Of a stretch of DNA of 17,015 bases, positions 14,024 through 17,015 are shown piece after piece; positions within the stretch are counted from its first letter, which is position 1, and the number at the start of each line of letters is the position of its first letter. A model generated the notes under the pieces. That model ran no database searches. It had not been told where the DNA came from and was given only the letters and a program-made list of their open reading frames with translations. The DNA lies in IMG/VR virus record IMGVR_UViG_2737471853_000007, positions 1 to 17,015 of that record; one strand, given 5' to 3'. Made by a program: the position numbers and the translations under genes. The DNA is from a virus (taxonomy: Duplodnaviria; Heunggongvirae; Uroviricota; Caudoviricetes).

Positions 14024-14587
14024 ATGTCAGACCGCAACAATGATTTTTCTTTGCTGGTAAAGTTACTGAATAGCTTCCTAAAGAATGAAGATATAAAGAG
14101 GCGTCTGTATTCCTTCGTCAGTAATGAAACTAATGATTGGGAAAAATGGCTACAAATTGAATTTGAGCACTTCCTTAACAAAAAAAGAAAATATGAAGTT
14201 AAACGTGAAGTTACAGCTTTTCTTGACCCTAATAATTTCCCTGCAAGCAAGCTCTCAAAAATCGATATAATAATGAGAGAAAAAGATACCCTTTTTGAAG
14301 ACTATATCTTTATTGAGCTGAAATGTACTAAGCGTTCATCTGCCTTAAAAAGAGGATTGCAAGCAGACCATTTGAAACTCAACTCTATACAAGAATGTAA
14401 GTATCCGATGCGAAATTCTTTCTGTGTTGGTTTTCATTTATATTGCTCATCATCTGTAGTTGAAGAAATGGACAAGTATGTAACCGATACCCTTAAAGGA
14501 TCTTATGCAGTATTCAAATTATGCGAATGTCCGACAAACCGTCATTGCGATTGTGCGTTAAATGAAATAGGTGTTGTACTTTGCTAA
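14024..14587 (+). CDS. Hypothetical small protein with PD-(D/E)xK-like nuclease motif and C-terminal Cys cluster
   Basis: 187-aa ORF divergent from terS with only 38 bp between start codons. Candidate catalytic motif E (QIEFEH) ... D (SKIDIIM) ... ExK (IFIELKC) with restriction-endonuclease-like spacing. C-terminal CxC...HCDC cluster. No AGTACT hexamer, unlike the phage operon. Confidence 0.5.
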   Translation: MSDRNNDFSLLVKLLNSFLKNEDIKRRLYSFVSNETNDWEKWLQIEFEHFLNKKRKYEVKREVTAFLDPNNFPASKLSKIDIIMREKDTLFEDYIFIELKCTKRSSALKRGLQADHLKLNSIQECKYPMRNSFCVGFHLYCSSSVVEEMDKYVTDTLKGSYAVFKLCECPTNRHCDCALNEIGVVLC

Positions 14588-14676
14588 GTGCGGTGCGGGA
14601 AGCTATCTAAACTTCACACATAACTTAAAGAATCCGGTGCCGAAAACTCGCGTTCTAAGCTGGGCTGCCGGAGTAC

Positions 14677-14760
14677 CTTAATTAGTAATTTAACTTAATT
14701 AGCTTGCTTAAAAATACTTACATTCTATTTTACATTAGCATTATTACAATGTTATATTAA
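14677..14760 (+). promoter_or_regulatory. Putative promoter/operator region upstream of the DUF3800 gene
   Basis: 9-bp direct repeat CTTAATTAG at 14677-14685 and 14693-14701, immediately upstream of a -35-like TTGCTT (14704-14709) and a -10-like TATTTT about 16 bp downstream. The AT-rich context makes the exact promoter assignment uncertain. Confidence 0.3.
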
Positions 14761-14766
14761 TAGCAC

Positions 14767-15921
14767 ATGCACATTGTAGCTCATAAAGGAATGACCAAAT
14801 TGGTAAAGAATGTATATTTCGATGAATCAGGATTCACTGGTAATAACTTACTTTCAAAAGATCAGCCTTTTTTTAGTTACGCAGCAGTCGTGACTGATGA
14901 TGAGGAAAGTAAACAGTTTGTTGATTATATAATAAACAAGTACTCGATCGCAGCCGAAGAGCTAAAAGGTAGCACTCTCGTAAATAGCAAGAGATTTCAA
15001 CCAGCCGTAGATGAAATACTTAATCATTTCCGTGGTCGTATGCGTGTGGTTGTAAACGAAAAAAAATATGCCCTCTCAGGAAAATTCTTCGAATATATTT
15101 TTGAGCCAGTATTAGCAGCTAAAAGCTCAATTTTTTACAACCTTAAATTTCACCTATTCATCTCAAATATAATGTATTTTTCTTTAATAGCTAAGGATGA
15201 ATATTCAGAACTATTACATTCGCGATTTGAAGATTTTTCACGAGGTAAAATATTGGTTAATAGTTTTATCGAACCAGTTGTTGGTTCTAAAAATTCTGAA
15301 ATTATGATGGACATTCATGATTTCGCCAAGAATAACATCTCTATAATTGAAGAAGAATATGAAGGCCTTGAGGGTACTGGGATTGATAAGTGGTTATTAG
15401 ATTTGACAACGACTTCTCTTTATAATCTCCTGTGCGATATGAGTAGTAAGTTTGGTACATTGAGAGCTATATGCGACAGCTCAAAACCATTAATTACTCA
15501 TCAGGACTCATTCAATGAGATGATAGGCAATGATGAGATTGTGTTCGAGACTTTTCATGATAAAAAAATCCCGATCACATTTAAGCTATCTGAGCCAATG
15601 ATTCTTTCTGATTCTAAAGTCACGCATGGTATACAAATTGCGGATGTGGTAGCTGCGGCTAGCATTTATGTCCTTAACAAGAAAAAATCGAAAGAAAAAT
15701 ATCATTCTAAATGGCTAAATCATTTTGAAGATGAGATTTTTTATTGGCAGTGCTGTGTTGTTCCCACACCAGAAAACCTTGACCCTAAAAATGTTAACAA
15801 CCATTTAAATAGATATATTTTGCAAGAAATTGCAGAGCGAAGCAGAAACTCAACTCCTGTTTTAGATGATATTGAGAAGGATATAATAAGAATTTCCAGA
15901 ACATTAGCCATGCTACGTTGA
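14767..15921 (+). CDS. DUF3800-family protein (function unknown)
   Basis: 384-aa ORF with both signature motifs recalled for DUF3800: N-terminal DES (VYFDESGFTG) and C-terminal QxxD (THGIQIADVVAAA), within the family length range. The start is uncertain: the ATG at 14767 has no SD, and the alternatives are ATG at 14791 or in-frame TTG at 14800, 9 nt after AAAGGA. Confidence 0.75.
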   Translation: MHIVAHKGMTKLVKNVYFDESGFTGNNLLSKDQPFFSYAAVVTDDEESKQFVDYIINKYSIAAEELKGSTLVNSKRFQPAVDEILNHFRGRMRVVVNEKKYALSGKFFEYIFEPVLAAKSSIFYNLKFHLFISNIMYFSLIAKDEYSELLHSRFEDFSRGKILVNSFIEPVVGSKNSEIMMDIHDFAKNNISIIEEEYEGLEGTGIDKWLLDLTTTSLYNLLCDMSSKFGTLRAICDSSKPLITHQDSFNEMIGNDEIVFETFHDKKIPITFKLSEPMILSDSKVTHGIQIADVVAAASIYVLNKKKSKEKYHSKWLNHFEDEIFYWQCCVVPTPENLDPKNVNNHLNRYILQEIAERSRNSTPVLDDIEKDIIRISRTLAMLR

Positions 15922-16316: not shown

Positions 16317-16826
16317 CTATAGAAGTTGTTCGCATTGTTCAAAGCGGATTGGCCTGTACTCTCCCTGTACTGCCCATACCCCCGACTCTCGTAAAATCCT
16401 GTGATTTCGATTGCTGCTGACTTGTACGATCACCTTGTCGCAGTACTGCATGATGTTATTGATGAGTACCGGGAAGATCAGCCGCTCTATGTGTTCTTCA
16501 GTGAACCGTCTATTTAGTCGAACTAAGTCGTAACCGTCCGTTAGCAGTGGTTCAGCAGCCATGTACCGTATGAATGGTAGATCTTCATAGCGTGTACCTG
16601 TGCCAGTACTGAGCACGCACAACAGCCCCTTTTCTTTGAACCATGCGGCTTTACCCTGAATCATTCTTAACTGGTTCTGATAGACCACGTGACGGATATA
16701 TTCACTTTCTTTTCCTGCCCCCATCAGTACCTGGCAACCGTTTATCAGTACACGGGTTTCCAGCTCTACGCCGAGTAACATACCGTCCAATGAAGTGATC
16801 GGAATTGCCCAATGTTCGAGTTTCAT
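16317..16826 (-). CDS. Hypothetical protein with degenerate EAL-like (YdiV-like) features
   Basis: 169-aa ORF. LLGVELETRVL resembles the EAL signature region (E. coli YdiV: LVGVELITHF, as recalled), LSTGTGTRYEDL resembles the DDFGTGYSS region, and C-terminal VWAVQGEY resembles the QGY(LF) motif. It is shorter than a full EAL domain, so the assignment is weak. Confidence 0.35.
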   Translation of the reverse strand: MKLEHWAIPITSLDGMLLGVELETRVLINGCQVLMGAGKESEYIRHVVYQNQLRMIQGKAAWFKEKGLLCVLSTGTGTRYEDLPFIRYMAAEPLLTDGYDLVRLNRRFTEEHIERLIFPVLINNIMQYCDKVIVQVSSNRNHRILRESGVWAVQGEYRPIRFEQCEQLL

Positions 16827-16950
16827 GTTGATCTCTCAGTTGTCATAACTGATTGATAATTGATCATTTTTAACCATTGATCAAATTAAAATGATCGATA
16901 ATTACATTTCTACCGTTTTTAGTGGTAAGTATTTTGATGGCTGGATCTGT
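16827..16950 (-). promoter_or_regulatory. GATC-rich upstream region with repeated TTGATCA-like motifs
   Basis: Five GATC sites in about 120 bp (16830-16833, 16862-16865, 16879-16882, 16893-16896, 16944-16947), embedded in repeated ATTGAT(C)A motifs (GATTGATAATTGATCATTTTTAACCATTGATCAAATTAAAATGATCGATAATT) directly upstream of the start codon at 16826. Confidence 0.3.
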
Positions 16951-17015
16951 GCGAAATGTGATGCAATACTGTATGGATAACCAGTATTAATGTAGTGTAA
17001 ATAGACCCGTTTTAG

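Follow-up and report, generated by a model that had tools for sequence, protein, structure and literature searches.

A predicted prophage promoter for an EAL-like gene combines a putative IHF site with GATC-containing boxes, a design shared with chromosomal STM1697

Flagellar inhibitors and Dam-linked DNA sites

STM1697 and YdiV are inhibitors of the flagellar regulator FlhD4C2, and the residues with which STM1697 binds FlhD have been described (PMC5622320, PMC8262846). Inside host cells, STM1697 expression is switched on "by some unknown mechanism" (PMC5622320). The gene, also designated STM14_2047, has the LysR-type regulator YeiE as a repressor, again through a mechanism described as unknown; relatives of STM1697 were reported to be absent from E. 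coli and Shigella (PMC8262846). In S. Typhimurium 14028, SMRT sequencing by Sanchez-Romero et al. revealed 33 under-methylated GATCs out of 19,229, with such sites in only 16 regulatory regions; the entry "STM2047, hypothetical protein" in that study has three GATCs, one of them hemimethylated at -68, and its fusion, silent in all conditions tested, was dropped from further analysis (PMC7708049). We found the GFP primer of that study to be an exact match to the 3' end of the STM1697 ORF, confirming the identity of "STM2047".

A second system of relevance is the promoter of Salmonella intA, the integrase that reintegrates prophage ST64B, where an IHF-Dam switch operates and where IHF represses and hinders Dam (PMC12455584). 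The locus analyzed here lies in a stretch of 17,015 bp (the window) and is akin to intA in three respects, namely an IHF motif over the -10, a prophage-linked promoter and GATC nearby; however, the sequence and the gene are unrelated, and the GATC of intA precedes the IHF motif by about 20 bp, whereas one GATC of the window falls inside the predicted IHF footprint, with others upstream. Based on comparison with relatives, we give somewhat better than an even chance to the reading that the region comprises a sigma-70 promoter, an IHF site and ATyGATC boxes in a design shared with chromosomal STM1697, and that it is Dam-sensitive and occupied by protein, not a free-standing switch.

The prophage gene pair and its predicted promoter

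The window is a prophage, as exemplified by genes for a Nu1/GpA-type terminase, a portal, a protease-capsid fusion, a tail fibre and a tape-measure protein. Complete contigs with an identical 169-residue protein place the prophage beside yeaG/prkA, inserted by a large serine recombinase, and one E. coli genome has a degraded copy flanked by mipA and yeaG. The host of relative L002 (relatives are designated by L numbers) is another enterobacterium, as its yeaG shares only 86% identity with the E. coli gene. Megablast of the promoter region against sequenced phages yielded nothing, and there is no close sequenced phage.

Across the prophage, GCGC is absent from the window (0 vs. 27 +/- 5 expected from shuffles), from the 18.5-kb L002 prophage (L002:2000-20510; 0 vs. 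about 22 expected) and from the diverged relatives L013, L011 and L035, while the adjacent 2 kb of host DNA contains 21; AGTACT (about 2-fold) and GTAC (about 1.4-fold) are over-represented in the prophage and GGTACC is absent, which suggests that this entire phage family avoids a restriction site. The interval separating the EAL-like/lipoprotein pair from the terminase genes holds a 187-aa gene and a DUF3800 gene in antisense orientation (14024-15921, plus strand); the DUF3800 gene is missing from several relatives and resembles inserted cargo. A GC-rich element (14588-14680; minus strand …GCGAGTTTTCGGCACCGG…CCCGCACCGCAC) adjoins the 187-aa gene that precedes the small terminase gene and is conserved in L008, L013 and L012, making it a candidate cos or other cis element. 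Beyond the window, an ORF-free stretch of about 550 bp between the 174-aa and 237-aa genes of the early region (L002:6395-6943) may contain a non-coding RNA or a regulatory region.

The original prediction had placed the GATC cluster in front of an EAL-like/lipoprotein gene pair, and both assignments held up. A Pfam search of the 169-residue protein gave no match; its AlphaFold model (pLDDT 80.8), on the other hand, had as best PDB match in Foldseek the STM1697-FlhD complex (5hxg, E = 2.4e-10), with YdiV (3tlq) next, and BLASTP against Salmonella STM1697 returned 26% identity (E = 1e-18), the prophage protein being about 58 residues shorter. Among the FlhD-contact residues, F160, L173 and Y180 are kept, with substitution of L172 by V and of H176 by N. 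Together, a degenerate EAL fold and contact residues retained apart from L172 and H176 suggest, as judged by model and alignment, that the protein is probably an FlhD4C2 inhibitor. The 90-aa lipoprotein gene is also called in L001, L003 and L005, and its product has a weak match to phrog_1754. The features of the region are listed in Table 1.

Table 1. Features of the promoter region and the genes that it serves (positions in the window; GATCs named by their distance from the ATG)
Feature	Position	Strand	Sequence or remark
Lipoprotein gene, 90 aa	16034..16306	-	MKILIVMLVVLLTGC...; second gene of the pair; from the ORF list
EAL-like gene, 169 aa, degenerate	16317..16826	-	First gene served by the promoter
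GATC -7	16830-16833		Between Shine-Dalgarno GAGAG (16833-16837) and ATG
Predicted IHF site, lambda H' type	16846..16871	-	AAAAA, TGATCAAT, TATCAATCAGTTA
P1 -10 hexamer (predicted)	16856..16861	-	AATTAT; predicted transcription start near 16849
GATC -39	16862-16865		Last four bases of the P1 spacer, abutting the -10; between the A-tract and the WATCAR core
GATC -56	16879-16882		Within the predicted -35 hexamer TTGATC
P1 -35 hexamer (predicted)	16879..16884	-	TTGATC; holds the -56 GATC and palindrome TTGATCAA
GATC -70	16893-16896		Within box AATTATCGATCATTT, 16889..16903 (-); about -47 relative to the predicted start
Possible P2 (low confidence)	16901..16928	-	TTACCA, 16 bp, TGTAAT
GATC -121	16944-16947		Within TGGATC, 16942..16947 (+)
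Divergent promoter (predicted)	16962..16986	+	Extended -10 TGCAATACT; overlapped by LexA box TACTGTATGGATAACCAGTA at 16967-16986
IS3-family element end	16996..17015		Matches L004, which has a transposase gene there

The most conserved element in front of the gene, overlooked in the original prediction, is the IHF site together with the core promoter. The predicted promoter P1 matches the consensus at 8/12 positions and has sigma-70 geometry (spacing of 16-18 bp, with A2 and T6 in the -10). In all 13 sequences scanned, drawn from three diverged lineages, a TTGnnn is positioned exactly 17 bp upstream of AATTAT, with spacer sequences that differ among them. The -35 variants of the relatives (TTGACT, TTAACT, TTGATA, TTGATG, TTGCGA and TTGCCA) thus retain TTG and not GATC. 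In the more distant L011-type and L033-type lineages, the best -35/-10 candidates are 19-21 bp apart, outside this geometry. A generic promoter scan did not report P1; its sole candidate, in minus orientation (TTGTCA, 16 bp, GATCAT), was unconserved in other lineages and was rejected. From these comparisons, the GATC region appears to be the promoter-operator of the prophage EAL-like/lipoprotein operon.

A possible second promoter, P2, has a counterpart in L007 and L045 (TTACCA, 16 bp, TATAAT; 10/12 matches), and the window version is probably weak because of the G at the second position of its -10. P2 overlaps a dyad, TACC-N9-GGTA (16911-16927), as read from the sequence. The dyad centre, about 70 bp upstream of the predicted start, corresponds to the geometry of a LysR-type recognition site; several relatives retain the dyad in the form ACC-N9-GGT, and L013 has ATC-N9-GAT.

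Using a published IHF consensus (bioRxiv 10.1101/382655), we searched for a composite pattern of an A-tract, 8 bp and the 13-bp core WATCARNNNNTTR, and obtained one match in the window vs. 0.01 expected; the core by itself, TATCAATCAGTTA, occupies 16846-16858. Among 24 distinct relatives, T-A-T-C-A of the core is present in 24/24 and is followed by A or G, the N4 varies freely, and the terminal T-T-A is found in 22/24, 24/24 and 24/24, respectively; the A-tract is missing in the L031 and L046 variants. Over the 24 sequences, such a pattern of conservation is what one would expect from the IHF consensus, in support of a predicted site. The H' site of lambda attP, AAAAAA GCATTGCT TATCAATTTGTTG, has the same A-tract, 8-bp spacing and TATCAA-N4-TTR; however, H' serves recombination, whereas the window site lies across a core promoter and has a GATC among the 8 bp of its spacer. 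Because the predicted IHF site covers the P1 -10 hexamer and the predicted start point, its position suggests repression.

On the far side of the region, intact copies of the prophage have a 178-bp divergent intergenic region between the 169-aa gene and a 103-aa gene (phrog_2100; L002:9511-9822) that is faced by the LexA-box promoter. The window LexA box, CTGT-N8-CCAG, has one mismatch and overlaps TGCAATACT, and a perfect CTGT-N8-ACAG is found in six relatives (L008, L013, L033, L035, L036 and L038); TGGATC (16942..16947) would be the weak -35 of this promoter, 17 bp from AATACT. With a box over the -10, as in LexA-repressed promoters, and the one mismatch in the window, the divergent promoter looks SOS-controlled and would serve the 103-aa gene. 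The product of this gene may be an SOS-induced antirepressor-like protein, and the arrangement is kept in most relatives. The window departs from the intact relatives L001-L003 exactly at the end of the IS3-family element, which, as in L004, cuts the 103-aa gene off from the SOS promoter; in this strain, the insertion would uncouple the 103-aa gene from LexA control. The -121 GATC is specific to the window lineage, given that other lineages have TGGATT.

GATC sites, repeated boxes and the STM1697 promoter

All five GATCs that had been placed upstream of the minus-strand ATG at 16826 were confirmed at their positions, and the repeats that had been described around them are genuine, reading on the plus strand as ATTGATA (16852), ATTGATC (16859), ATTGATC (16876) and AATGATC (16890). 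Three of the GATCs are within ATTGATC/ATCGATC boxes, a fourth box (ATTGATA) is without the C, and the remaining two GATCs, at -7 and -121, fall outside the repeat boxes. A repeat search detected two families of 15-nt direct repeats and one 15-nt inverted repeat that is 87% complementary; the latter is formed by the -70 box AATTATCGATCATTT and the -39 box, 31 bp apart, and has at its centre the palindrome TTGATCAA that is part of the -35 region.

Is the cluster more than chance in AT-rich intergenic DNA devoid of a specific function? As had been proposed, GATC density is locally high (5 observed vs. 0.31 expected in 124 bp at the local 30% G+C). The whole window has 66 GATCs in 17,015 bp, or one per 258 bp, and is not enriched (66 vs. 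54.7 +/- 6.3). With random placement in the window, the densest five GATCs span 96 bp (P = 0.028), the densest four 63 bp (P = 0.10) and the densest three 31 bp (P = 0.33), and this range of P values, 0.03-0.3, would be compatible with chance; within the window alone, the cluster is marginally unusual. It is the comparison with relatives, not the in-window statistics, that makes the cluster convincing: position-specific conservation extends across lineages with 44-50% identical proteins and to chromosomal orthologues. These comparative data effectively refute a chance cluster, which we regard as scarcely credible.

For this comparison, upstream regions were collected from genomes, viral contigs and metagenomes with 44-99% identical proteins. 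Between -100 and -30 before the ATG, diverged relatives have 2-4 GATCs vs. 0.08-0.2 expected. A GATC at -70 (+/-1) is present in nearly all members of the L001-, L008- and L013-type phage lineages, and the one at -39 in 20/22 phage sequences, having been lost in L032 and L044 (GATT, AATT). The others are more restricted: 1) the -56 GATC is limited to two of the three lineages and has disappeared from L039, L051 and the L031 group; 2) the L013 lineage has extra GATCs at -91 and -82, both lost in L047; 3) two more distant phage lineages carry a single GATC, at -39; and 4) the -7 GATC is found only in part of the closest lineage. GATCs are lost but the surrounding boxes persist in L047, L014, L039, L051, L032 and L044, and the IHF core likewise persists where close relatives lose GATCs. 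As judged by these alignments, individual GATCs are evolutionarily dispensable. The original suggestion of repeats bound by a protein fared well in this respect, with boxes conserved far past the level of the protein itself, and it is this excess of box over protein conservation that makes the repeats resemble protein-binding boxes. The inverted-repeat geometry of the -70 and -39 boxes suits a tetrameric LysR-type repressor or SeqA as candidate ligands. As single-stranded DNA, the region folds no better than shuffled sequences (z = -1.6), and an Rfam search of the whole window gave no match.

Searching the phage database gave a single match, a 2.2-kb record of what is in fact the chromosomal steC-STM1697-sapF locus. 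The 125 nt upstream of STM1697 align collinearly with the window-type promoter at equal distance from the ATG, with a local alignment score of 27 vs. 16.5 +/- 2.6 for 1000 shuffles. The STM1697 promoter has a ATTGATCG box at -70, followed by TTGATT, 17 bp and CATTAT, and then GTTAAAAGCGCATTATCAGGGAGTTA; it thus has in common with the window the ATyGATC box at -70, TTGATn, 17 bp, xATTAT, the A-tract with TATCAR-N4-TTA, a GATC near the start codon and a homologous downstream protein. There are also differences: STM1697 resides on the chromosome, with steC and sapF as neighbours, has an extra box at -88 and lacks GATC in both the IHF site and the -35 hexamer. In orthologues from S. enterica (including subsp. 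diarizonae), S. bongori and Citrobacter, two GATCs (-88 and -70) are preserved together with the IHF core (-33). A further GATC of the STM1697 orthologues is at -19, none is present at -39, and STM1697 itself also lacks the -56 site. The Citrobacter orthologues are only 47-50% identical to STM1697 and have different neighbouring genes, and the retention of these elements despite such divergence indicates that the STM1697-type promoter evolves slower than its protein. About 125 bp upstream of STM1697 (L053:960-990), there is also a sequence, TTAGCAAGTTAT, that is absent from the prophage version and is similar to the SlyA palindrome TTAGCAAGCTAA.

With the ATG as reference, the hemimethylated site at -68 is the bottom-strand A of the -70 box that the locus has in common with window position 16893-16896; with a transcription start as reference, it could be in the -88 box. 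The opvAB numbering in PMC7708049 is about 5.5 nt off that of the original opvAB paper, which leaves the reference point ambiguous.

These data bear on whether the GATCs are incidental parts of a repeated operator, either ATTGATCAAT palindromes or (G/T)ATCAAT heptads bound by some host or phage protein, with Dam having no regulatory part. The conserved unit does exceed GATC (TGATCAAT, ATCGATCA, TATCAAT), boxes outlive mutation of the GATC (ATTGATTGAT in STM1697, TTGATATGAT in L039, TGATTAAT in L032), and GATC is not enriched window-wide. However, the homologous Salmonella promoter has a GATC that is under-methylated in vivo, which argues that Dam and a bound protein interact there, and we hold an operator with incidental GATCs to be possible but doubtful. 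If such an operator belonged to a phage-wide repressor, its boxes would be expected elsewhere; a search for the TGATCAAT box in 20 kb of prophage, intergenic DNA of the immunity region included, found no other cluster, which argues against an operator of the main phage repressor. The window promoter is probably Dam-sensitive, and control involving Dam methylation is plausible by analogy with the Salmonella promoter.

The original prediction had invoked switches of the pap and agn43 type, and this part was not sustained. A classical Dam phase switch of the agn43/gtr/opvAB kind, to which Mu mom also belongs as another OxyR/Dam switch, would entail a LysR-type protein such as OxyR at alternative GATC half-sites with heritable ON/OFF states. 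The window shares with these switches several promoter-proximal GATCs in a putative protein-binding region, three of them within 35 bp of a promoter, a LysR-type link through the repression of STM1697 by YeiE, a resemblance to the agn43 region (CGATCAATATC, TTATCGATCG), and a best OxyR-consensus match of 13/20 that spans the -70 to -39 boxes, compared with 14/20 for the agn43 control. However, that match is at chance level, as 13% of shuffled sequences also score 13/20; neither the repeat search nor the relatives reveal a second, mutually exclusive set of sites; and the window GATCs are not strictly conserved, with the upstream ones missing in two phage lineages, unstable in others and lost even in close relatives. 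In addition, the Salmonella site is hemimethylated and not non-methylated, with a fusion that was silent throughout. We consider such a switch quite improbable; as read from these comparisons, the GATCs are parts of putative protein-binding boxes and do not form a free-standing phase switch of the pap/agn43 type.

The hexamers CGATCA, TGATCA, TGATCA and AGATCA, flanking the predicted IHF site, raise yet another reading, that of a DNA-processing site, either a Dam-gated packaging site like P1 pac or a SeqA-binding replication origin. P1 pac, which is Dam-sensitive, comprises seven TGATCA/G hexamers and an IHF site (PMC10028697), whereas the window element has only 3-4 hexamers and is tied to a gene start. 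Moreover, the element accompanies the EAL-like gene at non-phage chromosomal loci of Salmonella and Citrobacter, the terminase belongs to the lambda Nu1/GpA type and not to PacA/PacB, the conserved GC-rich non-coding element at about 14588-14680 is a better cos candidate, and neither a DnaA-box cluster nor an initiator gene is nearby for an origin. Given the non-phage loci and the better cos candidate, both the packaging-site and the origin readings were ruled out, with only the very slightest chance left to them in our estimate.

Proposed mechanism and its meaning for motility control

For the promoter-operator reading, we propose that IHF would bend the promoter DNA and occlude RNA polymerase, leaving the gene silent in ordinary growth. 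YeiE would be the best candidate for a repressor, because it represses STM1697, with H-NS as an alternative. Dam and the bound protein probably compete for the GATCs, such that protein occupancy would render them hemi- or unmethylated, and methylation of the GATCs would in turn weaken rebinding, as at the IHF-Dam switch of intA. An effect of the methyl group on IHF binding is not assured, because IHF contacts the minor groove (N6-methyladenine). Once expressed, the 169-aa product would bind FlhD and shut down flagellar synthesis.

A bolder version, which we put forward as unlikely, is that chromosomal and prophage silencers of the STM1697 type share an ancient promoter gated by IHF, YeiE and Dam through the -70 and -39 boxes, in which loss of the bound protein by replication or stress would permit methylation and fix the gene in the ON state. 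If this were true, joint gating would explain the surge of STM1697 inside host cells, and temperate phages would be spreading an epigenetically controlled shut-off of motility among E. coli, Shigella and their relatives.

The window brings together three observations, namely the hemimethylated GATC of "STM2047", the induction of STM1697 and its repression by YeiE, and this link between promoter design and STM1697 regulation is previously unrecognised. The design spans the chromosomes of Salmonella and Citrobacter as well as prophages of E. coli, Shigella, Lelliottia, Pseudescherichia and Scandinavium, and supplies defined sites for mutation. Relatives of STM1697 do reach E. coli and Shigella, carried there by prophages.
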